From: a bacterium
Lineage (GTDB): Bacteria > Patescibacteriota > Patescibacteriia > UBA2196
Assembly (NCBI GenBank): GCA_035387885.1
Contig: DAOOOW010000003.1
Location: forward strand, 3,498 to 67,497
DNA: 64,000 nt
Reading direction: 5' to 3'
Shown here: positions 1,992-28,022 of the stretch, in pieces
Layout of the letters: every line of letters begins with the position of its first letter
Position numbering within the stretch: position 1 is the first letter of the stretch
Program-made: the position numbers and the translations under genes
The notes under the pieces: generated by a model
What the model saw: only the letters and a program-made list of their open reading frames with translations
Told to the model about the DNA's origin: nothing
Database searches by the model: none

Positions 1992-3617
1992 ATGTTAGAT
2001 CAAAAAAATTTAGAAGCAGTACCTCAAAATACTGTTGGCTCAACAGTTAGTTCAGAAACCAACATACCTTTAAAAATAATCAAAGAACTTTTTAAAAATT
2101 CTATTGCTTTAACTTGGTTAAAAAAGTGGCGTTTTATTTTTTTAAATATCATTCCTAAATTAATAGGTTTTTTACCTTTTCTGTTTTTGGGGGTTATTTA
2201 TGCAATTCTAGTATTTCAAGTGGGTTTTTCCAAATCTCTCATCAGTATTTCTCTGGTAGCTGGTTTTTTAGCTATTTTTTGTTTACTTTTTTTAATATCT
2301 TGTGTGTTTTGGTCTCAAAACGCTTATATTAATTATTTACAAACTAATGAAGAATCAAAAAAAACAATTTTAAAAAATAGTCGTAAGAAAGTTTGGAAAT
2401 TTTTTTGGGTTAGTATTTTAAGTGGTTTTATGGCTTTTGGTTATTTAATTTTGTTTTTTATCGTTGCGCCATTATTTTATATTTTTGTATCAACAGCAAC
2501 TATTGGCCTAGTGATTGGCGGTATAGTGTTTTTGGTTTTATTGATTCATGGCATCATCAGGGCCATTAAATTTAGTTTAGCCCCTTTAGCTTATTTAATT
2601 GATGATAAAACTGGTATGTTGGCTATTAAACACAGTGAATTCTTAACTTCTGGTTATCGCTGGGCTATTTTTAAAAGAAGTTTGGTTTTTGGATATTTTC
2701 AATTTGTTATTCAAGTTCTTGTTGGTGTGTTGGTTGTATTGGTGGGTCTACTTTTAGGCTTGGGTGGTTTAATTGGTATTCTTGGCACGATATTAATAAT
2801 AGTTTTATCTTTCATTAATATTTTTATTGGTTTATTGTTGGAACCCTTGGGTTATGTATATAATTTTGATATTTATAATAATTTAAAATTAAATAAACAA
2901 ACTGGTGAATCAAAAGAAAAATATTCTTTAGGACAAAAAATAGTTGTTTTATTGTTAATGATTGTTTTGCCGATTATGGCTATTGGTTTTTCTTTGCTTT
3001 TAAATCTTATTAGTCCTGAAAAAGACAATTTAGATAATAATATTTTTTCTTCTTTTGTTAATCAAATAGCTCCAGGCACCATGGAAAATTCAGCCAATAT
3101 TTTAATTAATTTTGAAGAAGATGATTTAAACACTGTTAGCGATCAACAACAACAAGCCAACGATGAATTGTTAAAAACTCTCAATTCACTAACCGAGGCG
3201 GAGACTGTGACAGCTAACAATCTTTTTGTCAAAACTTATCGATCTATGATGAATGGAGAAAACATACCAGAATTTTCAGAAACAGAATTTCAGTTTTTAA
3301 TTATTATGCAGGGTCTTGATGCCACCCCAATTAATAATTTATCTTTAGAAAAAAAGAAATTTATCTGGAATATTTTTTATGTTGATGGTTTAAAAGAACA
3401 AAATGAACAAATTGATTTAAATGATGATATTAATCAAAATGTCGTTCAAGATAATATCAATCAAGACGTTGATCAAGACGGTCTAACTGATGATTGGGAA
3501 AAATATTATAAAACAGATGTCAACAATCCTGATACAGATGGTGATGGTTATTTTGATGGCGACGAGGTGCAAAATGGTTATGATCCCGCTTTGCCTGGCG
3601 ATGCTAAATTAAAATAA
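1992..3617 (+). CDS. polytopic membrane protein with an acidic C-terminal tail of TSP3-like Ca-binding repeats (DxDxDG)
   Basis: Multiple hydrophobic segments. The C-terminus reads DQDGLTDDW...NPDTDGDGYFDGDE. Confidence 0.55.
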   Translation: MLDQKNLEAVPQNTVGSTVSSETNIPLKIIKELFKNSIALTWLKKWRFIFLNIIPKLIGFLPFLFLGVIYAILVFQVGFSKSLISISLVAGFLAIFCLLFLISCVFWSQNAYINYLQTNEESKKTILKNSRKKVWKFFWVSILSGFMAFGYLILFFIVAPLFYIFVSTATIGLVIGGIVFLVLLIHGIIRAIKFSLAPLAYLIDDKTGMLAIKHSEFLTSGYRWAIFKRSLVFGYFQFVIQVLVGVLVVLVGLLLGLGGLIGILGTILIIVLSFINIFIGLLLEPLGYVYNFDIYNNLKLNKQTGESKEKYSLGQKIVVLLLMIVLPIMAIGFSLLLNLISPEKDNLDNNIFSSFVNQIAPGTMENSANILINFEEDDLNTVSDQQQQANDELLKTLNSLTEAETVTANNLFVKTYRSMMNGENIPEFSETEFQFLIIMQGLDATPINNLSLEKKKFIWNIFYVDGLKEQNEQIDLNDDINQNVVQDNINQDVDQDGLTDDWEKYYKTDVNNPDTDGDGYFDGDEVQNGYDPALPGDAKLK

Positions 3618-13538: not shown

Positions 13539-15125
13539 TTATTTATAGATTTTCTGTAATAAATAAATTTTTACTTTTTTAAATAAAAAATAATTATAAT
13601 ATTCCTCTTCGGCAATTGTTTTATAATTTGATAATTCTGAAAAAGAAATCACATATTCCATAGTATTTTTAGGAAATAAACGATTAATATACCACGGTCT
13701 GCTTAAATCAATTAAAATTGGTATATTTTTCATTACCTCATACGTGTATTGTCCATTAAGTTCATAACCACCATCTATTTGATAATATAATTTATTTTTT
13801 GCTGTTTCCTGATAAAAATAACTTCTGATTCTATTCCAATCCATATAATTTCTTTCTAGGGTAATAGAGAAAAAAGCAAAAAATAATAAAAAAATTATTG
13901 GTAATATAAAATTTTTTTTTGTTACAAACATTTCTGGCTCGGTGGCAGTTATCAAAATAAAAATTAAAGGCAATAATAATAAATAATAACGATCAAAACT
14001 TATAAAAACCAAAATTAGCATTAACTGCAAAATAAAGTTTATAAAAATAAATTTTAGAAAAATATTAGACCATATTTTTTTAAAGTTTAAAATAAAAAAC
14101 AATAACAAAAGCGCTCCGCCTAAAGAAGCGCCCAAATTAACTATAATTTTTAATGTTGCTGTAAAAACAATAGCTGGTATGCCCATCAGGACTTCTGTAT
14201 TTGGTCCCAGTCCGTAATCATTAATAATATTTTGAATATAGGGAAAATTTGCGCCGATAGTTTTGTTTAAACCAAACAATATAATAAAAAATAATAAAAA
14301 TAAAAATATTTTTTTCTTTGCAAAAAGTTTTTTTTGGTAAATTATAAGCAGGGGCAAAGAAAATAAACCTAGGTATTGAATAGAATAAAAAAGCCAACGC
14401 CCAATATTTTCTAGTAAATTTTTTTCTAAAAGATGGGTTTGCCCTTCGCTAATATTAATATAATTTTTAAATAATATATATCCAATAACTATCAAAAGAG
14501 AGGTTACAAAAGTAAGAATTAAAAAATCTTTTTTAAATTTGATTTTTTTATAAGATAAAAGAAAAAATAAGCATAAAGAGCCTAAAAGTAAAATTCCATT
14601 TTGTCTAATAAAAAAAGCAATAAGCGTGGATAAAAAACCTAATCCTAAATTTAATTCTCTAGACTTATCAAAATATTTTTCAAATTGCCAAAGGGCGAAT
14701 AAGTAAAAAAATAAAAAAGGCACGTCAGTTAAAAAAGTAAAAGAGGTGTTAATTAAAATTGGATTAAATAAAAACATTAAACAGGCAAAAAGATTTATTT
14801 TTTTATCAACTTTATTTTTTTCTAAAATTAAATATAAAATAATTACGCTTAAAATAGAAAAAAATAGACTTGATAATCTTAAAAAATTATAAGAAAAACC
14901 GGTTATTAAACTTATAATAAATCCATAAAATGTTTGAGCAATTAAAATTGGCCCAGTAAATTCATAAAAATCCAATTTATGTTCATAAAGCAGACTTTGA
15001 ACCGTGTGCCCATGCACCCAATCATCATTCAAAGGAAAATTGCCCTGCGGATTTACTAATAAAATGATTATCAAAAAAACGGTAATTATTATAATTAAAT
15101 GTTTTAAACGGCTTGTCATAGTCAT
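13539..15125 (-). CDS. polytopic membrane protein, probable GT-C glycosyltransferase (family 39/83-like)
   Basis: 528 aa and highly hydrophobic, with NDDWVHGH in the first loop. Confidence 0.4.
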   Translation of the reverse strand: MTMTSRLKHLIIIITVFLIIILLVNPQGNFPLNDDWVHGHTVQSLLYEHKLDFYEFTGPILIAQTFYGFIISLITGFSYNFLRLSSLFFSILSVIILYLILEKNKVDKKINLFACLMFLFNPILINTSFTFLTDVPFLFFYLFALWQFEKYFDKSRELNLGLGFLSTLIAFFIRQNGILLLGSLCLFFLLSYKKIKFKKDFLILTFVTSLLIVIGYILFKNYINISEGQTHLLEKNLLENIGRWLFYSIQYLGLFSLPLLIIYQKKLFAKKKIFLFLLFFIILFGLNKTIGANFPYIQNIINDYGLGPNTEVLMGIPAIVFTATLKIIVNLGASLGGALLLLFFILNFKKIWSNIFLKFIFINFILQLMLILVFISFDRYYLLLLPLIFILITATEPEMFVTKKNFILPIIFLLFFAFFSITLERNYMDWNRIRSYFYQETAKNKLYYQIDGGYELNGQYTYEVMKNIPILIDLSRPWYINRLFPKNTMEYVISFSELSNYKTIAEEEYYNYFLFKKVKIYLLQKIYK

Positions 15126-15175: not shown

Positions 15176-15835
15176 ATGGACATTCAAGAAAAAATCAATC
15201 AGCAAATCGCCAGTTTAAACGAGGCTTTGGATTTTAAGGAATATTTTAAACTGCAACGAGAAATTAATCATGAATATCTGCGCACATGGGATTATGCTGA
15301 ATTTTTTTTAAAAAAAGACGCTTTTGTCCAATATGAATTATTGATCAAAAGTTTTGATGAAAAATTAAAAATAGATCAGGAAAAATCCGCGGAAGAAAAG
15401 GCTAAACAGGGTTTAGATGATAAAAAATTAGAAACCATGAAAAAATTTAACGAACAGGTTTTAGCCAGTTTATCTACTAAAGATTATCAAAAAACTTCCG
15501 AACAAATGTTTTATGTGATTTTGGGCAATGTTATCGAGCACGCGGAGTTAAAAGATATTGATTTAACAAAATTTGATTTAGCTAAAGATTTGTATCCCAA
15601 ACTTAAAGCGCCGCTTTCTTTGGCTGTTTTTCTTTTTCAAAATTTAACTTTTGGCCCTATTGCTTTAAAAATAAATTCTTTAAGCTCGGAATATTTGCAA
15701 AAATATTGTGCCTTGTTTTTATGCCTCTGGCGTTCTGTTTTTGATTTTATGGCTTACGAAAGGATGCAAGAACAACAAAAACAAAATCAATCTGTCAATC
15801 ACGAACATAATCATCAACATGGTAAGGGCGAATAA
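15176..15835 (+). CDS. hypothetical protein with a His-rich C-terminus (NHEHNHQHGKGE)
   Basis: ORF only. Confidence 0.4.
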   Translation: MDIQEKINQQIASLNEALDFKEYFKLQREINHEYLRTWDYAEFFLKKDAFVQYELLIKSFDEKLKIDQEKSAEEKAKQGLDDKKLETMKKFNEQVLASLSTKDYQKTSEQMFYVILGNVIEHAELKDIDLTKFDLAKDLYPKLKAPLSLAVFLFQNLTFGPIALKINSLSSEYLQKYCALFLCLWRSVFDFMAYERMQEQQKQNQSVNHEHNHQHGKGE

Positions 15836-15839
15836 TTCG

Positions 15840-16032
15840 CTCCTACGAGCAAATGGAACATCAAAAACCATTGGCGCTATTGTTCGCGACTATAAAATCG
15901 GTGTAACCAAATGGACGCGTGCCAATAGCAATATTATGGCAACGTAATTATTTTGAACACATTATTAGATCAGAAAGATCTTTATTTGATATTCGTAATT
16001 ATATTTTAAATAATCCCTATAATTGGGCATAG
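15840..16032 (+). pseudogene. IS200/IS605-family (RAYT-like, COG1943) tyrosine transposase C-terminal remnant, frameshifted
   Basis: Frame 0 reads KTIGAIVRDYKIGVTKWTR, then a +1 shift gives WQRNYFEHIIRSERSLFDIRNYILNNPYNW. This is the conserved RAYT/TnpA(IS200) C-terminal signature. The N-terminal catalytic half is missing. Confidence 0.6.
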
Positions 16033-16059
16033 AGTGTTTGTATTGTAGGGGCGCCCTTT

Positions 16060-17511
16060 GTGGGTGCCCAAAATATTATGAAAATTGATTTTAAAAAAAA
16101 ATTTTTACAAATAAAAAAATATTTAGATAAACACTTTTTTGTTTTTTCTTTTATTATATTATTGGTGGTTGGAATTTTAATATATTTACCAACCCTGCAA
16201 ATTGATTTTTTATCAGACGATTGGGGCTATGCTTATTTAGCTAAAAACAACGCCCCACAAGATGCTCTTAAATATTTTTATCAAACAGATATTGATGGTA
16301 ACGGCATTGGTAATTTTAGACCACTAGAAAGTTTTTTGGTTATTCTTGTATGGAAACCATTTCTTAATAATCCTTATTTTATACATTTAATGGCAATTAT
16401 TATGCATATAATAGTTGCTTTTTTAGTTGGTTTTTTATTTCATATAATTTTTAAAGATAAAAAAAGCAGTTTAATAAGTGCTTTTTTATTTTTACTCTTT
16501 CCCTTAAACATGGAAGTGGTTTGTTGGTTGTGTAGCAGTTGGAACACTTTGCCAGCTATTATTTTTTTATTATTGTCCATAATTTTTTATTGTCGAGACG
16601 GTGCTACAAAACATAAAATTATTTTTATGTATTTTTTTGTTATTTTGTCACTTTTAGCTAAAGAGTTTGCTTTATTAATACCCATAATTACTTTTTTCAT
16701 AGATTTATTGTTAAAAAGAAAACCTCATTGGCTACTTATTATTAGTTTTGTAATTTTAGATTTAATATATTTTTTTGCTCGCTTTTTATATCTGGGTCAG
16801 TTGGGTGGCTATACTGATCTTGGGGGTCAATCTTTACATACTCAATTTAGCTTAATAGGTTTAGTTTCATTTATAAAATTACCAATAGTTTATGTTGTTA
16901 ACTTTTTTAATTGGCTACTGGTGCCAGGATGGTTAAAATATTCAGCTGCAATTTTAATTTTTATTTTAATTTTATATTTTATAATTTTATTTTTTACAAA
17001 AAAAGATATTAATAAAAAACAAATCTTAAAAAATATTTTTATTTTATTTATACTTATTTATATTGGATCGGCGTTAGCCTGGAATTTAATCAACCCATTA
17101 TCTAAAATCAATATTCATTCCCGCCTTTATTATTTAAGCAACGTTTGGTTTGTGTTTTTATTGGGTTATTTATTTTTGATTATGAAAAATAATAAGATTT
17201 TTAAAACTTTATATATTTTATATTTAATATGTTTAATAAGTATAAGTTATTATCAAATGCAGCCATGGTTAATAGCTAATGAAAAAACTAAGGAAATAAA
17301 TTTTCTTATAAATAATGTTTTAAAAAATAATGAATCGAAAAAAAAACTGGAGATTATAAATTTGTCAGATGCTTATCAAAATGCTTATATTTATCGCAAC
17401 GGCATAGATTCGGCAGTTGCTTTAATTAATAATTATAAAAAAGATGATATAATTATAGAAAAGAAAATGCAAGCATCAGTTGATTTACCAATAATAGTAA
17501 ATATAAAATAA
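16060..17511 (+). CDS. polytopic membrane protein, possible GT-C-type glycosyltransferase
   Basis: 483 aa and very hydrophobic, with an FLSDDWGYAY loop. The true start is probably MKIDF at 16078. Confidence 0.4.
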   Translation: MGAQNIMKIDFKKKFLQIKKYLDKHFFVFSFIILLVVGILIYLPTLQIDFLSDDWGYAYLAKNNAPQDALKYFYQTDIDGNGIGNFRPLESFLVILVWKPFLNNPYFIHLMAIIMHIIVAFLVGFLFHIIFKDKKSSLISAFLFLLFPLNMEVVCWLCSSWNTLPAIIFLLLSIIFYCRDGATKHKIIFMYFFVILSLLAKEFALLIPIITFFIDLLLKRKPHWLLIISFVILDLIYFFARFLYLGQLGGYTDLGGQSLHTQFSLIGLVSFIKLPIVYVVNFFNWLLVPGWLKYSAAILIFILILYFIILFFTKKDINKKQILKNIFILFILIYIGSALAWNLINPLSKINIHSRLYYLSNVWFVFLLGYLFLIMKNNKIFKTLYILYLICLISISYYQMQPWLIANEKTKEINFLINNVLKNNESKKKLEIINLSDAYQNAYIYRNGIDSAVALINNYKKDDIIIEKKMQASVDLPIIVNIK

Positions 17512-17933: not shown

Positions 17934-18329
17934 CAAGGCGGGTGAACGGCTGCCCCGATGAGCGCAAGCAATATTGGGGAGGAAAGTCCGGACATTATAA
18001 AAAATGGTAGTCGCGAAATGCGACCAGGCATAAGAATTACTAAAAAAATAAATCACGATCGTGTTATTTTTTAAGGACAAATTCAAAACCTCGAGACAGT
18101 GCCACAGAGACAATAATAGTCCCGCATTTGCGGGATCAAAGGTGAAAAGTGAATTGGTGTTGATTTTAATCAGCTACAATTCTCGCCCAATGGTGACATT
18201 GGTGCGTGGCAAACCTTACCTAATGCAATCCCTATGGGGAGCTTAGATAGATAGTCGTATTTATTCGTAATATTCGCTTTTATTAGCAATATTCGAATAA
18301 AACAGAATCCGGCTTATGATCCCGCCTTG
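17934..18329 (+). ncRNA. rnpB: RNase P RNA (bacterial type A)
   Basis: GGGAGGAAAGTCCGGAC P4 strand. AGTGCCACAGAGACA...GCGGGATCAAAGGTGAAA matches the E. coli J11-12/P12 region. 3' ACAGAATCCGGCTTAT P4 strand. P1 pairing caaggcggg/cccgccttg. Confidence 0.85.
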
Positions 18330-18346
18330 GACAAATAAAATTTAAT

Positions 18347-19864: not shown

Positions 19865-20944
19865 ATGAAAGTCGCTCTCATCAACGACATGCTTGTTCAA
19901 GAAGGCGGACAAGAAAGAGTTCTGCGCGCCTTGCAAGAAATATTTCCAGAAAGTCCAACCTTTGTGTTGTTTTATGATGTTAAAAATAAAGAAAGATATT
20001 ATCAAAAAAAAGAAATTGTTTCCAGTTTTTTGCAAAGATTTCCTCAAATAGAAACCAGATATCAGTGGATGTTGCCCTTAATGTCCACGGCTATTGAATC
20101 TTTAGATTTAAGAGAATATGATTTAATTATTTCTTCAAGCTCTTCTTTTGCTAAAGGAGTTTTGGTAAAACCTGAAGCTAAACATATTTGTTATTGTCAT
20201 ACGCCGACGAGATTTTTATGGTCAGAGTGGCATGAATATATTGGCGATTTGCGCTATCCTAAATTTATTAAAAAAATATTGCCATTTTATTTATCACAAT
20301 TACGCAGTTGGGATTATAATGCAGCTCAAAGAGTAGATTATTTTTTAGCTAATTCCAAAACCGTAGCCGATAGAATAAAAAAATATTATAATCAAGATTC
20401 CGCCATAATTTTTCCACCAGTAGATACTGAAAAATATTTTATTGCCGAGCCTAAAAATTATTATTTAATTGGCGGTAGGCTTGTGCCTTACAAAAGATAC
20501 GACTTAGCTGTCAAAGCTTTTAATAAGTTAAACATACCTTTAAAAATTTTTGGCCTAGGATCAGAATATGCTTATTTAAAATCTATTGCTAAAAATAATA
20601 TTGAATTTTTGGGTGAAGTTTCTGAAAACGAAAAAATTCGCCTTTATAGCGAAGCTCTTGCTTTTCTAAATCCCGGTGAAGAAGATTTTGGTATAACTAT
20701 GATTGAATCTTTAGCTTCTGGTCGACCAGTCATTGCCTATAATAAAGGCGGGGCAAAAGAAACAATTAAAGCAGGGGAGACTGGAGTTTTTTTTAATCAC
20801 CAAACCTGGGAAAGTTTGGCTAATACCATTATTCATTTTCAACCAGAAAAATTTAATAGCCAACAAATTAAACTTCACGCCGAACAGTTTAATAAAAAAA
20901 GATTTAAAAATGAAATGAAATCTTTTCTTGACAAGATTATTTAA
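19865..20944 (+). CDS. GT4 family glycosyltransferase
   Basis: C-terminal EDFGITMIESLASGRPVIA...GETG motif (GT-B, GT4). Confidence 0.8.
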   Translation: MKVALINDMLVQEGGQERVLRALQEIFPESPTFVLFYDVKNKERYYQKKEIVSSFLQRFPQIETRYQWMLPLMSTAIESLDLREYDLIISSSSSFAKGVLVKPEAKHICYCHTPTRFLWSEWHEYIGDLRYPKFIKKILPFYLSQLRSWDYNAAQRVDYFLANSKTVADRIKKYYNQDSAIIFPPVDTEKYFIAEPKNYYLIGGRLVPYKRYDLAVKAFNKLNIPLKIFGLGSEYAYLKSIAKNNIEFLGEVSENEKIRLYSEALAFLNPGEEDFGITMIESLASGRPVIAYNKGGAKETIKAGETGVFFNHQTWESLANTIIHFQPEKFNSQQIKLHAEQFNKKRFKNEMKSFLDKII

Positions 20945-21545: not shown

Positions 21546-23471
21546 TTAATTTATTTTCTCAGGATTTATATCTAGCATAACATTTTTTGGCAGATTATTC
21601 AAAATTTTATCCAAAGTAATATCTAATGGAATTTTGGCAATCAAATTAAATTTAAAGTTTTTGTTTTGATGAGTATCTGGCAATGGTCCAAGAAGTTCTA
21701 TTTTTTCATCAATATTTTTAATAAATTCCGATATTTTTTTTAAAGAATTTTTTACTAATAATTCTTTTTTATCAGTGGCTATAAATTTAACCAATTGCGA
21801 AAATGGTGGATAATTAAAGTCTTGTCTAGTTTGCAATTCAGAATTATAAAATATTTCTGGCTTATTTTCTTTAATACTTTGGATGACTAAATTTTCTGGT
21901 ATATTAGTTTGTAAAACAAAATCAGCGTTATTATGAGCCGAAAAAATATTATAAAACAGCTGATAAGCCTTTTCCTCGGCTCGAAAATCACCAATATTTA
22001 ACAATTGATCAAAATTAATAAAAGCAATCAAAGCAAATTCCTTTAAATCTATTTTATTAATAACAAATCTGGTGCCAATAATTATCTGGTAATCAGCTGT
22101 TGTTTTGTGTTCCAACTTATCCAACTCTAAAATCTTGGCTTCTGGCAAAAGTTTTTGTAATTCACTTTTAACTTTTTGTGTACCCGCGCCCTTAAAATTT
22201 ATATTAATCCCGGAACATTTTGGACAAAATGGTGACATGTCTTCATGGTATTTACACCAAGAACAAACCAATTGCTTTTTTTTATTTTCATAAGCCAAAT
22301 TATTAGCACATTTTGGACATTTAAAAACATATTCACAATCTTGACAATTGACTAATTTAGCAAAACCAATACGATTATGAAACAAAAATATTTTCTGCTT
22401 ATTATTTAGTTTTTCTTTTATATTTGCTAATAATTTATCAGAAATGGGATTATAATTGCCACCCTGTCTTTCATTTTTTAAATTGACTATGCTGACAACT
22501 GCCTTTGGCCCAATGTTGCCACCTTTTTTGTCATCCTCGCGGAAGCGAGAACCCAGAAATTTTATTTTATTTGCAAATTTTTTTTTCTGGATTCCAGCTT
22601 TCGCTGGAATGACAGCCAAATTGTAAGTTTCTAAATTTGGTGCTGTCGTAGTCAAAACTAATTCCGCTCCAAAATTTTCCGCTAGCCATTCTGCCACATC
22701 TCTGGCGTCAAATCTTGGATTTGCTTCAGATTGTTTGTGATTCCAACTCTCGGCGTTTAAAATTATAAGATGTTTTAAATTAACAAACGGTAAAAAAACA
22801 GCAATTTTTGTCCCGATAATAATTTTATTTTTATTATTTAAAACATTTTGCCAAGTCTGGAAATAATCTGATTTTTTAATTTGACTATGAACAATAGCCA
22901 CATCTTTTTCTTTTACAGAACAATTGATTATTATTTTTTTAATTAAAGAAATTTCTGGTATTAAAATTAAAATTTGTTCTTTATTTTTTAAAGCCAATTT
23001 TATTTTTTCTTTAATTAAATTTTCTACTTCTGAAATATCCCGATACCATAATAATTGTGCTTTCTTTTTATTGTTTTTAATTTTTATATTTTTTTTCTGA
23101 TTTCCCTGCCTCGCCAGCAGGCAGGTGCTGGCGTATTTTGAATTTTTTTTAGGTAGATTCGGTACTAATGTTTTGGCTAAGCCAGTTAAAGAGCTGCCGG
23201 TTGATTGAGCTATAAATTTTATTAATTCAATTTGTTTGGCATTAATAATTGGTAATAGAGTAATAATTTTTATAATTTTTTTTAATTTAAAATGATAAAT
23301 TGGTTTTTTATTTTCTAAACCAATTATTAAACCATTAATTTTTTTATGCCCAAAATCTATAGCTACAATTTGGCCCAAAGAAATTACATTTTCCAATTCT
23401 AAAGGCACGGTATAGGAAAAAAAATCCAAACTGGCTGGTAATTTTAAAAGTGGAATAATTTGTGCTATCAT
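21546..23471 (-). CDS. priA: primosomal protein N' (PriA) homolog with degenerate helicase motifs
   Basis: PriA Cys-rich zinc region CQDCEYVFKCPKCAN...CSWC...CPKCSG. ILILIPEISL aligns to VMVPEIGL and IIGTKIAVFLPF to IGTRSALFTPF. Walker A is replaced by YRDISEVENLI and DEEHD by NAESWN. Confidence 0.8.
   Translation of the reverse strand: MIAQIIPLLKLPASLDFFSYTVPLELENVISLGQIVAIDFGHKKINGLIIGLENKKPIYHFKLKKIIKIITLLPIINAKQIELIKFIAQSTGSSLTGLAKTLVPNLPKKNSKYASTCLLARQGNQKKNIKIKNNKKKAQLLWYRDISEVENLIKEKIKLALKNKEQILILIPEISLIKKIIINCSVKEKDVAIVHSQIKKSDYFQTWQNVLNNKNKIIIGTKIAVFLPFVNLKHLIILNAESWNHKQSEANPRFDARDVAEWLAENFGAELVLTTTAPNLETYNLAVIPAKAGIQKKKFANKIKFLGSRFREDDKKGGNIGPKAVVSIVNLKNERQGGNYNPISDKLLANIKEKLNNKQKIFLFHNRIGFAKLVNCQDCEYVFKCPKCANNLAYENKKKQLVCSWCKYHEDMSPFCPKCSGININFKGAGTQKVKSELQKLLPEAKILELDKLEHKTTADYQIIIGTRFVINKIDLKEFALIAFINFDQLLNIGDFRAEEKAYQLFYNIFSAHNNADFVLQTNIPENLVIQSIKENKPEIFYNSELQTRQDFNYPPFSQLVKFIATDKKELLVKNSLKKISEFIKNIDEKIELLGPLPDTHQNKNFKFNLIAKIPLDITLDKILNNLPKNVMLDINPEKIN
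22530..22613. repeat. 84-bp palindromic element (gtcatcc family) inserted in-frame in priA
   Basis: Arms gtcatcctcgcggaagcgagaacccagaaa and tttctggattccagctttcgctggaatgac. Translates to ...IPAKAGIQKKKFANKIKFLGSRFREDDKKGG... Confidence 0.6.
23105..23125. repeat. family A palindromic mini-element (inverted copy) in-frame in priA
   Basis: cctgcctcgccagcaggcagg. The extended 33-bp match to 1246-1278 is in reverse orientation. Translates to TCLLARQGNQ. Confidence 0.65.
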
Positions 23472-24872: not shown

Positions 24873-25037
24873 ATGTTTTATATAGCATATTATTTATTAA
24901 TTTTGGTTGTTTGTTGCATTATTTTTTTGATTATGATTTTTGGTATTATGTTTTGGAGGTTTAAAATAGCCAAAACACAAACGGAAAAAATTTTTTCACT
25001 AAAAAAGCCACTCAGCAGAGTGGCTTTTTATGTCTAA
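24873..25037 (+). CDS. small hydrophobic peptide (54 aa, one TM, basic C-terminus)
   Basis: GGAGG RBS 6 nt upstream. MFYIAYYLLILVVCCIIFLIMIFGIMFWRFKIAKTQ... The 3' end runs through hairpin DR1. Confidence 0.3.
   Translation: MFYIAYYLLILVVCCIIFLIMIFGIMFWRFKIAKTQTEKIFSLKKPLSRVAFYV
25005..25026. repeat. hairpin direct repeat DR1 (aagccact-cagcag-agtggctt)
   Basis: 8-bp stem, 6-nt loop, followed by a T-run. Near-identical copy at 25511-25532. Confidence 0.7.
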
Positions 25038-25173: not shown

Positions 25174-25497
25174 ATGTCAAAAGTGAAAGCAAGAGAGGTG
25201 TTGTCAGTAAGTAAACACGGTCCTGACTACCACTGGTTTCATCTGGTAGTCAACGGGCTGCAAACACTGACGGTTTCTGATGCTGCAGCGGTATGGATCG
25301 TAGATGATACGGTTCATAAGACCACTGCAATTATCACCAGAGCTTGGGAAAAGTATGATGATCAAAAAGATCTCGTTGTTAAACGGGCTAAAATCACTGG
25401 CCCGGAGTTTCAAATCCTGAATCTTCTAAGTAGCCTTGGGATGGGGACTCCTGAAGTCGCAGCTATTCCTTGGCAAAAAAATGAAGATGCTGTGTAA
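25174..25497 (+). CDS. hypothetical protein (107 aa) on a compositionally foreign cassette
   Basis: GC is about 45-50% against about 28% in the flanks. Codon usage differs (ctg/ggc/acg rich). Strong promoter and RBS. Flanked by hairpin direct repeats. Confidence 0.6.
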   Translation: MSKVKAREVLSVSKHGPDYHWFHLVVNGLQTLTVSDAAAVWIVDDTVHKTTAIITRAWEKYDDQKDLVVKRAKITGPEFQILNLLSSLGMGTPEVAAIPWQKNEDAV

Positions 25498-25510
25498 TCT
25501 TCGTCTTGAA

Positions 25511-25532
25511 AAGCCACTCAACAGAGTGGCTT
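25511..25532. repeat. hairpin direct repeat DR2 (aagccact-caacag-agtggctt)
   Basis: Differs from DR1 by one loop base. Also serves as a bidirectional terminator between the cassette and the convergent GT gene. Confidence 0.7.
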
Positions 25533-25548
25533 TTGTATTTAATATTTT

Positions 25549-26736
25549 TTATTCCTGGTAGACTTTTTCCGTCTCTCTCAGCATTTTTTCCAAGCTAAAA
25601 TTTTTTATTTTTTCCAAATTATTGTGGCTGAATTTTTCTGCCAATTTTGGATCATCCAAAATTTTTTCTAAAGCCCTAGTAATTTCTCTGGGTTTTTCTT
25701 TGTTAACTATTAGACCATTAGCATCTTGTTCAACAATTTCTAACATGCCTCCAACAGAGGTGGCCACAACAGGTAATCCAGCAGCCATGGCTTCCATAAC
25801 AGAATAGGAAAAACCTTCTTTAACAGAGGGCAAACAAAAAATATCAAAAGCTTTTAAAAGTTCATAAGCTTTATCAATATTACCAACAAGAAAAAAAACA
25901 TTCTCTAAATTTAATTGCTTAATTTCACGTTCTAGGTTTTTTCTTTGTCCACCTTCACCAATAACTATAAAAATAACTTGTGGATTTTTTTCTTTTAAAA
26001 TTTTGGCTGCTCGAATTAAGTAAATTAGACCTTTGGTGGCATATAAATTGGCAATAGTGCCAATAAGTGGTGAGTAATCCCTAATTTGCCTGCCTGCCGG
26101 CGAGGCAGGTAATCTGTAATTGGTAATTAATGTTTTTCTAGCTTCAGATTTTTCTAAAAAATTTAATTTAGTTAAATCAATACCGTTGTGAATAGTAATA
26201 AATTTATGATGGGGAGCTATTTTGTGATTTAAACCAGTGATTTTATCTAATTCGGAAACACAAATGATTTTATCTTTAAAATGTCCAGATATTCTTTCAG
26301 ACCATTGGTAAAATAATTTTCTACCAAGAGATATTGGTTCGTTAAACACAAAACCATGAACAGTATAAATTATTTTGACTTTTTTACCACTTATCTTTTT
26401 ATAAAGCCAGCCCATAACTGCGCCGGTCGAGCCAATTTTACTGGAATTTAAATGAATAATATCTGGTTGAGATTTTTCAAGTAGCCGATAAATTTCTAAG
26501 CCTGATAAAAAATCATGCCAGAGATTTATTTCTCTGACAACATGTTTAAGTCGCCAAACTTTAAAACCCTTTTGAGACAAACTTTCTAGCCAATCAACAA
26601 CGGGGTGTTCTTTTTTTTCTCCGACCGCAATTTCTATAATATATTTATTAGCAGGTAAATTTTCTGCCAAATCAATAATATATTTTTGGGCGCCACCAAA
26701 TTCACTTTGAGTGACAAGATAGAGAATTTTAATCAT
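25549..26736 (-). CDS. GT4 family glycosyltransferase
   Basis: GT-B N-terminal GGAQ motif and C-terminal EGFSYSVMEAMAAGLPVVAT. In-frame family A element at 26089-26109 (PASPAGRQ). Confidence 0.8.
   Translation of the reverse strand: MIKILYLVTQSEFGGAQKYIIDLAENLPANKYIIEIAVGEKKEHPVVDWLESLSQKGFKVWRLKHVVREINLWHDFLSGLEIYRLLEKSQPDIIHLNSSKIGSTGAVMGWLYKKISGKKVKIIYTVHGFVFNEPISLGRKLFYQWSERISGHFKDKIICVSELDKITGLNHKIAPHHKFITIHNGIDLTKLNFLEKSEARKTLITNYRLPASPAGRQIRDYSPLIGTIANLYATKGLIYLIRAAKILKEKNPQVIFIVIGEGGQRKNLEREIKQLNLENVFFLVGNIDKAYELLKAFDIFCLPSVKEGFSYSVMEAMAAGLPVVATSVGGMLEIVEQDANGLIVNKEKPREITRALEKILDDPKLAEKFSHNNLEKIKNFSLEKMLRETEKVYQE
26089..26109. repeat. family A palindromic mini-element, in-frame in a GT4 gene
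   Basis: cctgcctgccggcgaggcagg, identical to 1257-1277. Confidence 0.7.
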
Positions 26737-26792: not shown

Positions 26793-28022
26793 ATGCAACT
26801 CAAGCAGGAAAAACCCAAAATTTTAATTTTTTCTTTAGCTTATTTTCCATTTATTGGTGGTGCGGAAGTCGCGGTAAAAGAAATTATTACACGTTTACCG
26901 GAATTTGAATTTGACATGATTACTTGTAATTTAGATGGACAACAAAAAGCCGAAGAACAAATTAATAATATAAAAATTTATCGAGTTGGCAGAGGAAAAT
27001 TTGCTAAAATATTTTTTCCATTTTTGGCATACAAAAAAGCATGCTCTCTCTTTTGTCATCCCGACGATCCGCCAACCGGCGGACGGGATCCTTATGTTGT
27101 CTCCAGTCTCTTGACTGGAGACGCAATGCACTATCGCTCCAGTCAGGAGACTGGAGCGAACAACTATATTATCTGGTCCATCATGGCCAATCAAGCCGGT
27201 CTAGCTGCTTTATTTTTTAAGAAAAAATTTCCTCAAGTTAAATTTTTATTAACTTTGCAAGAAGGCGATTCTGTTTTTAATATTTGGAAAAAAACTTGGT
27301 ACATGCGCCCGCTTTATAAAGCCATTTATCATTCGGCTGATTGCATTCAAGCTATTAGTAATTTTTTAGCCAAGAGAGCTCTTAAATATGGTTACAAAGG
27401 ACCAATAGAAGTGATACCCAACGGAGTAGATTTAGAAAAATTTAAGTATCTTGAAAAAAATTTGCTTGATAAAAAAGACAAAGTAATTTTGACAGACTCT
27501 CGATTGGTGGAAAAAAATGGTGTGGAATATTTAATTAAAGCCATGATTCTAATTAATATTAAAATTAAATTATTAATTTTAGCTGATGGACCACTGAGAG
27601 AATATTTACAAAAACTGGTTGTTAATTTAAACTTGCAAGACAGAGTTGAATTTTTGGGTTTAATTCCTTATGATAATATTCAAAAATATTATGCCGAGGC
27701 AGATGTTTTTGTGCGGCCGTCATTAACAGAAGGTTTTGGTAATGTTTTTATTCAAGCTATGGCCGCTGGAATTCCAGTTATTGCCACACCAGTTGGCGGT
27801 ATTCCAGATTTTTTGAAAGCAGGGGAGACGGGATGGTTTTGTGAAGTAAAAAATCCACAAAGTATTGCCGAAAAAATAAATTATATTTTAGATGAAAAAA
27901 ATAAAGATGAAGTTGAACGAGTAGTGGCTAATGCCAAAAAGATGGTTGAAGAAAAATATACTTGGGAAATTGTGACTAAAAAAATGAAAAATATTTTTGT
28001 TTCCCTAATTTTTAATTTTTAA
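26793..28022 (+). CDS. GT4 family glycosyltransferase carrying an in-frame insert of about 105 nt
   Basis: C-terminal EGFGNVFIQAMAAGIPVIATPVGG. The insert encodes CHPDDPPTGGRDPYVVSSLLTGDAMHYRSSQETGAN. Confidence 0.8.
   Translation: MQLKQEKPKILIFSLAYFPFIGGAEVAVKEIITRLPEFEFDMITCNLDGQQKAEEQINNIKIYRVGRGKFAKIFFPFLAYKKACSLFCHPDDPPTGGRDPYVVSSLLTGDAMHYRSSQETGANNYIIWSIMANQAGLAALFFKKKFPQVKFLLTLQEGDSVFNIWKKTWYMRPLYKAIYHSADCIQAISNFLAKRALKYGYKGPIEVIPNGVDLEKFKYLEKNLLDKKDKVILTDSRLVEKNGVEYLIKAMILINIKIKLLILADGPLREYLQKLVVNLNLQDRVEFLGLIPYDNIQKYYAEADVFVRPSLTEGFGNVFIQAMAAGIPVIATPVGGIPDFLKAGETGWFCEVKNPQSIAEKINYILDEKNKDEVERVVANAKKMVEEKYTWEIVTKKMKNIFVSLIFNF
27055..27158. repeat. composite GC-rich palindromic insertion (gtcatcc...gggatcc unit plus a family B unit with two hairpins)
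   Basis: 27096-27129 matches 1063-1096 closely. Second hairpin cgctccagtcaggagactggagcg. Confidence 0.65.

Follow-up and report, generated by a model that had tools for sequence, protein, structure and literature searches.

What is the short coding-like interval that separates two genes at positions 15819-16032 of this genome piece, and do the hairpins at its two edges belong to it? The piece, a 64-kb stretch of AT-rich DNA (GC content 30%) referred to here as the window, was analysed as a whole. The earlier note on this DNA had read the interval as what is left, decayed and with a shifted frame, of the C-terminal part of an IS200/RAYT-type tyrosine transposase. Its origin from a RAYT-type Y1 (HUH) transposase gene was borne out by matches to a family HMM and to an NCBIfam model and by an intact orthologue in the contig L086. 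We concluded that the interval is very probably a dead pseudogene, the C-terminal ~40% of a RAYT (TnpA_REP) gene of subclass 2.4 (RAYT group 4). The remnant spans exactly the DNA from an internal REP to a 3' flanking REP, and the features of the locus are collected in Table 1.

Table 1. Features of the RAYT remnant and its two neighbouring genes, in window coordinates.
Feature	Position	Strand	Description
Upstream 219-aa gene	15176..15835	+	No Pfam match; 3' end remodelled by deletion
Remnant, first reading frame (frame 3)	15819..15947	+	42-aa ORF MVRANNSLLRANGTSKTIGAIVRDYKIGVTKWTRANSNIMAT, then stop; HMM positions ~103-141
Internal REP	15822..15846	+	Degenerate 'double-foot' palindrome GTAAGGGCGAATAATTCGCTCCTAC; left edge of remnant
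Frameshift site	15935..15936	+	+1 frame change; 8-nt deletion relative to the intact orthologue L086
Remnant, second reading frame (frame 1)	15937..16032	+	WQRNYFEHIIRSERSLFDIRNYILNNPYNWA, then stop; HMM positions 141-174
3' flanking REP	16045..16069	+	Foot GTAG 16045-16048, stem GGGCGCCC / GGGTGCCC, loop TTTGT
Downstream 477-aa membrane protein gene	16078..17511	+	No counterpart in L085, where the RAYT remnant has none either

The family HMM comprised 181 positions and was built from 44 full-length relatives. Against the two frames of the remnant it gave E values of 6e-10 (positions 103-141) and 4.2e-14 (positions 141-174). When the 64 kb was translated in all six frames, positions 1-102, with the HUH at about 84-88, had zero matches, and the remnant was the single copy of the family in the window. 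Together the two frames encode the last ~72 of the ~181 RAYT/TnpA_REP positions, so that the similarity goes far beyond what chance would give and is not confined to a block of fewer than 15 residues. The NCBIfam model NF047646 (REP_Tyr_transpos) matched the fragment between profile positions 97 and 131 (of 146), with an E value of 2e-7 and a score of 31 bits. The equivalog cut-off of this model is 80 bits, and the full-length relatives, with 46-72 bits, lie under it just as the fragment does. The Pfam profile PF01797 (Y1_Tnp), which had been proposed as a check, left the fragment unmatched even at E 10. PF01797 is a weak model for subclass 2.4 even at full length: its gathering score is 23 bits, the family consensus reached 27.3 bits and two real full-length relatives reached 21.5 and 20 bits.

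When the 70-aa fragment was searched against the PDB with phmmer, chance matches only were obtained. A profile of 21 full-length relatives detected E. coli TnpA_REP (4ER8, E 5.7e-5) as the sole solved relative. A scan of species-representative genomes yielded 579 confirmed relatives in many phyla, among them members of Bacteroidota, Pasteurellaceae, Deltaproteobacteria, Chloroflexota, Planctomycetota and Peribacteria. In the protein collection the 70-aa fusion query returned only proteins of 42-120 aa, as if fragments were in excess among the homologues. This was refuted by the full-length query, which gave at least 7898 proteins of 175-240 aa at E <= 1e-10, often named 'REP element-mobilizing transposase RayT'; the short matches of the 70-aa query were therefore a word-index effect.

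Full-length relatives (175-240 aa) start with MKYNPxxHHRRSIRLKGYDYSQ..., followed by MPNH[IV]HGII, which contains the HUH. After the HUH comes a variable loop, typically VGAKNFSPL, then GTSKTIGSIVRGFKIGVTKW, and then VWQRNYYEHIIRNE...IRxYIxNNPxxW. The active site of E. coli TnpA_REP consists of H59-M60-H61, Y115, N119 and H123 (PMC3479197). In the alignment to 4ER8, PEHMH pairs with PNHVH, and Y115 and N119 pair with the Y and the second N of YILNNP; a single-sequence alignment to 4ER8 likewise pairs the Tyr of the remnant's RNYILNNP with Y115. The HUH (His-hydrophobic-His metal-binding motif), present as MPNHVHG in the orthologue L086, is lost from the window. A conserved motif upstream of the core (HHRRSIRLKGYDYS in relatives, THHRHSIRLSKCNY in L086, and present in 69 of the 77 surveyed copies) is deleted from it as well. 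Retained are the single catalytic Tyr (codon 16000-16002, the Y115 equivalent), which HUH Y1 transposases carry on helix alphaD, and the Asn (the N119 equivalent) at +4, the position of their polar metal ligand. The view that the catalytic N-terminal half is absent was thus correct for the N-terminal half with its HUH, but the catalytic Tyr and Asn lie in the piece that is left. The remnant cannot make a HUH nuclease. Taken together, the sequence features (the motifs, the internal REP and the double-foot REPs) point to subclass 2.4, and the assignment rests on them.

The opening codons of the first reading frame are supplied by the internal REP, which is translated as VRANNSLL, and the frame continues from this REP-coded loop into the region of helix alphaC; an identical 42-aa ORF (P0011) is present in public assemblies. 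The second frame carries the conserved W and the Y motif and reads ...LWQRNYFEHIIRSERSLFDIRNYILNNPYNWA up to a TAG stop codon at 16030-16032. The two peptides quoted in the earlier note, joined by a +1 shift, are both present as quoted, with the change of frame at 15935/15936. At the junction L086 reads AATATT-TATGAATT-ATGG and the window AATATT-ATGG, so that 8 nt are gone before TGG-CAA. The frameshift is identical in five assemblies (the window, L001, L002, L083 and L084). The remnant is base-for-base the same in the two independent assemblies L001 and L002, and the more distant strains L083 and L084 have one or two base differences from it, none of them at the shift. As the same sequence occurs in four other assemblies, the frameshift is real and not a sequencing error.

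In L086, a metagenomic Logan contig of 2.2 kb, the upstream gene has 86% nucleotide identity to that of the window, and the contig carries an intact RAYT at the same locus, though it ends inside the RAYT gene. In L086 the stop codon of the upstream gene (1629-1631) is followed by an upstream REP, GTAGGGGCGAATAATCATTCGCCC, at 1637-1660 and by the ATG of the RAYT at 1693. The RAYT, which matches the NCBIfam RAYT model with an E value of 5e-12, runs through MPNHVHG and a post-HUH REP at 2017-2044 into a C-terminal half with 83% nucleotide identity to the window. Compared with L086, ~390-440 nt are missing from the window: 107 codons, the upstream REP and the final part of the upstream gene. At the junction CATCAACAT meets GGTAAGG, directly 5' of the internal REP. 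The left end of the deletion can be placed in two ways owing to a repetitive His-codon tail, and the exact junction and the original 3' flank are approximate because L086 is ~14% diverged and ends inside the RAYT. The window further lacks 2 nt of the internal-REP loop, and among its replacements is that of Gly by Asp in RG[FY]K (IVRGYK), which is near-invariant. The pN/pS ratio against L086 was 0.41 in the C-terminal half, on 57 codons only, and 0.11 in the flanking gene; on this small number of codons the raised ratio would fit relaxed constraint.

In addition, the L086 RAYT contains an extra in-frame double-foot REP in its N-terminal half (1834-1858, GTAGGGGCGAAAAATCTTTCGCCCCTAC, peptide IGRGEKSFAPTE). 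It occupies the spot where relatives have GEMxLNxAG, and none of 48 other full-length loci had a REP there.

From this comparison we infer both the direction and the order of events. An ancestor of the Patescibacteria-like genome would have had an intact RAYT between the 219-aa and the 477-aa genes. A deletion of ~390-440 nt, with its right edge directly 5' of the internal REP, would then have taken out the first ~107 codons with the HUH, along with the upstream REP and the end of the 219-aa gene. A second deletion of 8 nt would have shifted the frame before WQRNY. Point changes would have come afterwards, among them the exchange of the near-invariant Gly of IVRGYK for Asp and the loss of a REP stem base, and the remnant presumably no longer gives any product. 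This account rests on 64 kb of the genome, and an intact RAYT copy may lie outside the window. Simple homologous recombination between two REPs was considered as the mechanism of the large deletion and rejected, as the GTAA foot of the internal REP is preserved at the junction, whereas nothing of the upstream REP or its 5' spacer is left there.

The deletion also left its mark on the upstream gene. The last codons of the 219-aa gene (GKGE and stop) are read from the internal REP, whose loop supplies the stop codon TAA (15833-15835); homologues of the gene come from Patescibacteria and have different, longer, His-rich tails in the relatives. In the NCBI annotation the 219-aa gene is HPA25347.1 and the downstream gene HPA25348.1, with one locus tag passed over between the two. 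For annotation we suggest the label RAYT pseudogene, with two REP hairpins, for 15819-16032, and a note that the C-terminus of the upstream gene was remodelled by deletion.

The internal REP is orthologous to the post-HUH REP of L086, GTAAGGGCGAATAATCATTCGCCCCTAC. It has the form GTAA...CTAC, with a canonical right foot and a mutated left foot, and the left mutation is found in L086 as well. As DNA it folds at -5.9 kcal/mol (z -2.8). The 3' REP, folded as single-stranded DNA, reaches -8.8 kcal/mol (z -2.9); its stem contains one G-T pair and has a GGG/CCC base, like the canonical long REPs of subclass 2.4 with their three basal G-C pairs. It stands 13 nt after the stop codon of the remnant, the ATG of the following gene lies 9 nt beyond it, and in relatives the same hairpin type lies 11-63 nt downstream of the stop. 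The earlier note had suggested a GC-rich palindrome downstream of the remnant as the sign of a REP/RAYT system. Such a hairpin exists, and its GTAG foot and its distance from the stop codon identify it as the cognate REP; it was, however, placed at 15990-16015, ~55 nt too far left of its actual position at 16049-16069 (with the foot at 16045-16048), and the second, related palindrome, the internal REP, had been overlooked. The 3' REP shares the GTAGGGGCG foot with the internal REP, and not the stem centre, so that its cognate status rests on foot and position. The 5' flanking REP, kept in L086, is gone from the window. The two hairpins that are left survive as passive DNA, one of them supplying the stop codon of the upstream gene. 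A role of the two REPs as terminators was rejected, since neither is followed by a T-run, and RNA genes did not explain the hairpins: there is no tRNA in the 64 kb, and the only RNA gene is that of RNase P RNA at 17934-18333.

At 15841, within the internal REP, L083 and L084 have C where the window has T, and C gives the better REP stem. Between 15760 and 16100 the window differs from L083/L084 by two substitutions only, both in REP stems, both C/T and each weakening the pairing; one is a T at 15841 that only the window has, the other a T at 16068 that only L084 has. That both differences in 341 nt fall in REP stems is a curiosity and not a test.

Two further relatives show the locus without a RAYT. 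In L085 a 228-aa gene is directly followed by mscL, and 15822-17502 of the window has no counterpart; in L088 the RNase P RNA directly follows the homologue of the 219-aa gene. From these two arrangements, the RAYT lies in a variable spot of a glycosyltransferase-rich region with mosaic strain divergence. In the window the order past the 219-aa gene is RAYT remnant, 477-aa gene, mscL and RNase P RNA, a small hypervariable spot; the RNase P RNA, of class A (bacterial; 131 bits), lies three genes downstream of the remnant. L083 and L084 share ~99.7% identity with the window outside sharply delimited patches, in which there are 15-35 differences per 100-200 nt; the genes affected by these patches (13561-14760 and 20139-20938) encode a PMT_2 membrane glycosyltransferase and a GT4 protein. 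The patchy divergence is a mosaic typical of recombination in surface-glycan loci. With 2 differences in 341 nt, against an overall 5% for L084, the remnant had seemed specially conserved, an idea that was dropped as the divergence is confined to the recombinant patches. The locus offers a small, clean case of RAYT gain and decay in the streamlined genome of a small, uncultured, Patescibacteria-like bacterium: relatives preserve the intact state and two RAYT-free arrangements, and the glycosyltransferase island around it recombines between strains.

The earlier note had also held the RAYT system responsible for the palindromic mini-elements of the window. This was not supported, since the other palindromes have unrelated stems and no RAYT foot. 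The RAYT-type foot GTRGGGGCG (at most 1 mismatch) had 7 matches in the 64 kb against 4.4 expected, and a hairpin was formed only by the 3 at the remnant; no dispersed cognate REPs were found in the window. Its other GC-rich palindromes lacked feet of the GT[AG]G or C[TC]AC type, and none of their stems resembled that of the RAYT REPs. They are a separate phenomenon that the RAYT pseudogene does not explain, and most of them lie inside ORFs and are read through in frame. The palindrome CCTGCCTGCCGGCGAGGCAGG (CCTGCCT-GCCGGCG-AGGCAGG) occurs in perfect or near-perfect form at 1257-1277, 23105-23125 and 26089-26109, with 0 copies expected.

Several details of these other repeats were recorded. The CCTGCCTGCCGGCGAGGCAGG copy at 1257-1277 stands just after the stop codon of the gene 667-1233, and copies are in frame in priA (peptide STCLLARQG) and in the GT4 glycosyltransferase gene 25549-26736 (peptide LPASPAGRQ). 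priA, on the minus strand, holds VIPAKAGIQ/SRFREDD-type sequences, and its second in-frame insert (22518-22613) reads VIPAKAGIQ...LGSRFREDDKKGG from two small palindromes (GTCATTCCAGCGAAAGCTGGAATCC and TTCTCGCTTCCGCGAGGAT-like). A GC-rich block of ~100 nt at 27057-27159, inside the glycosyltransferase ORF 26793-28022, contains the palindromes CATCCCGACGATCCGCCAACCGGCGGACGGGAT, GTCTCCAGTCTCTTGACTGGAGAC and TCGCTCCAGTCAGGAGACTGGAGCGA and is translated in frame as CHPDDPPTGGRDPYVVSSLLTGDAMHYRSSQETGA; a related SLLTGD peptide is found in the gene 667-1233. Two near-identical terminator-like hairpins, AAAAGCCACTCAxCAGAGTGGCTTTT, at 25005-25030 and 25510-25535 flank a small ORF (25174-25497).

An in-frame REP has been described as a 'unique feature' of TnpA_REP subclass 2.4 by Quentin, Siguier, Chandler & Fichant 2018 (BMC Genomics 19:475, PMC6006769), and this subclass equals RAYT group 4 of Bertels et al. 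2017 (PMC6006769). GTAG REPs and intragenic REPs in general were treated by Di Nocera et al. 2013 (PMC3733652), and REPtrons are documented in the literature for species without REP families. The order of an intact subclass 2.4 locus is upstream REP, N-terminal half with the HUH, in-frame GTAG-footed REP, C-terminal half with the catalytic Tyr, and downstream REP. The DNA that encodes the VGAKNFSPL loop is the palindrome GTAGGGGCGAAAAATTTTTCGCCCCTAC. In most relatives a GTAG...CTAC palindrome of this kind falls within the gene, around codons 88-125, and it often recurs immediately upstream of the gene and 11-63 nt downstream of it. The stem centre varies between species (GCGAAAAATTTTTCGC, GCACGATGCATCGTGC, GCGTATTGCAATACGC, GCTCAAAATTTTGAGC and others), whereas the complementarity and the GTAGGGGC foot are conserved. 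By a stricter hairpin definition a GT[AG]G hairpin was found between the HUH and the C-terminal half in 35 of 48 full-length loci, and within 300 nt of the gene in 18 of them.

We surveyed where the homology to the family HMM starts in 77 copies, leaving out copies cut by contig ends or gaps. It starts at positions 1-15 in 69 copies and at positions 90-114, the internal REP, in the other 8, with none at 16-88. Four of the eight truncated copies came from the unbiased genome scan (L019, L020, L033 and the second copy in L005), and the other four (L089-L092) were chosen as short ORFs. Several truncated copies resemble that of the window in that the end of an unrelated upstream gene coincides with the REP. 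We tentatively propose that the in-frame REP of subclass 2.4 genes might be a built-in break point, at which truncated copies in unrelated phyla start (8/8). The REP-bounded C-terminal half would then be a recurrent product of REP-directed excision or recombination, possibly by the RAYT acting on its own gene. The cause could be the simple fragility of a hairpin or cleavage near REPs by the enzyme itself, a mechanism that we can only conjecture from so small a sample. A search of the literature for C-half-only RAYT remnants or for such a break-point pattern found no report, and this is the only point that goes beyond the literature searched. A break at the internal REP, if general, would bear on how domesticated transposases die, and those C-half-only ORFs that are intact in other genomes might even serve as truncated regulators.

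Some of the truncated copies had distinctive surroundings. In L092 (2501-3431) a C-half-only copy (HMM positions 90-179), starting from a REP, stands in tandem before a full-length RAYT (HMM positions 9-179), a partial duplication bounded by REPs. In L019 (~2960-3010), L089 (~2372-2510) and L090 (~2440-2510), all of other phyla, the C-half-only remnants lie directly downstream of genes with a characteristic ending. The upstream neighbour ends in ...YGLTEEEIEIxE in L019 and L090, and in L089 it is an MmeI/Eco57I-type restriction-modification methylase with a TaqI_C domain. The shared neighbourhood may be coincidence or may be preferred.

Might the C-terminal half with its two bounding REPs be a REP-to-REP module, which arrived by RAYT mobilisation or was excised by the enzyme at its own internal REP, and not what an ordinary illegitimate deletion left behind? 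The start positions in the survey (8 of 77 copies at HMM positions 90-114, none at 16-88) would agree with this, as would the C-half-only copies that abut the stop codons of unrelated genes (L019, L089, L090 and L091) and the tandem in L092. Both ends of the deletion between the window and L086 lie just 5' of a REP foot, and E. coli TnpA_REP cleaves and rejoins single-stranded DNA beside REPs (PMC3479197). This enzymology is that of the E. coli enzyme, of subclass 2.2, however, half of the eight truncated copies had been picked as short ORFs, and hairpins are prone to deletion in general, with no enzyme needed. That L086 has an intact gene at this very locus argues for decay in place and against the arrival of a half gene, and we regard the module as improbable here.

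A remnant that is still functional, through programmed +1 frameshifting, as small proteins or regulators of 37-42 aa, or as promoter or 5' region of the 477-aa gene, is less plausible still and seems very improbable. Its near-identity in five assemblies would speak for it, but with only ~0.3% divergence among the strains outside recombinant patches this near-identity is uninformative on constraint, and the remnant is conserved no better than its surroundings. A promoter-like TTGATA-17-AATAAT stands at 15986-16014 upstream of the 477-aa gene; the count of such sites, however, is within about two standard deviations of shuffles. That C-half-only ORFs are intact in other phyla would likewise be in its favour. 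Here, however, the HUH is gone, the near-invariant Gly is replaced, pN/pS is raised and the shift is an 8-nt deletion that the orthologue L086 does not have. From the sequence, nothing suggested that any part of the remnant still works. That it derives from an IS200/IS605 insertion sequence with a mobile TnpA, as the label IS200/RAYT-type in the earlier note would allow, is hardly conceivable. Both groups share the Y1 HUH fold and COG1943, and the only relevant Pfam model is called 'Transposase IS200 like'. The best named model, however, is that of the REP-associated tyrosine transposases, the sole PDB relative is TnpA_REP, and the Y motif is Y-x3-N as in TnpA_REP and not Y-x3-Q as in IS608. 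The hairpin feet are GTAG, the window holds one copy, and no tnpB was recognized, the neighbouring genes being without a Pfam match. These are features of RAYT subclass 2.4 and not of an IS200 insertion sequence.

A RAYT gene that decayed in place thus remains the preferred reading, and as a pseudogene of a well-described RAYT subclass the remnant is nothing new in kind. It shares with subclass 2.4 (PMC6006769) the C-terminal block WQRNY...Y-x3-N without a C-terminal extension. Canonical and 'double-foot' GT[AG]G...C[TC]AC REPs, with a REP in frame between HuH and Y, are common to that subclass and to the remnant and its relatives, and the relatives found here have the same patchy spread over many phyla. 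It differs from the subclass in that nothing is left outside the segment between the internal REP and the 3' REP, which is moreover frameshifted, and in its host, a Patescibacteria-like MAG of a group not highlighted in that study.

Compared with E. coli TnpA_REP (RayT/YafM, 4ER8, subclass 2.2), the intact relatives have PNH[IV]H in alignment with the HUH residues H59 and H61, and the Y and N of YILNNP in the window align with Y115 and N119. The overall similarity is weak, as seen from the E value obtained with the profile. The E. coli enzyme has a C-terminal extension (with the ligand E161) and H123 where subclass 2.4 has W, and the E. coli REPs are imperfect, bulged and extragenic only, unlike those of subclass 2.4. 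The TnpA proteins of the IS200/IS605 family (IS608, ISDra2) have in common with RAYTs the HUH and the single-Tyr chemistry on single-stranded hairpin DNA, and their excision between two hairpin-guided cleavage sites is a model for the removal of a REP-to-REP segment. Those elements are mobile and multi-copy, with LE/RE ends, often tnpB, and Y-x3-Q, none of which was seen at the remnant. The intragenic REPs of Di Nocera et al. 2013 (PMC3733652) and the Rickettsia RPEs, which are in-frame palindromic insertions in genes, are similar in that a GC-rich palindrome is translated as a peptide loop (of the VGAKNFSPL type) while the protein stays intact. Here, by contrast, the host gene is the REP's own transposase, which is dead in the window.
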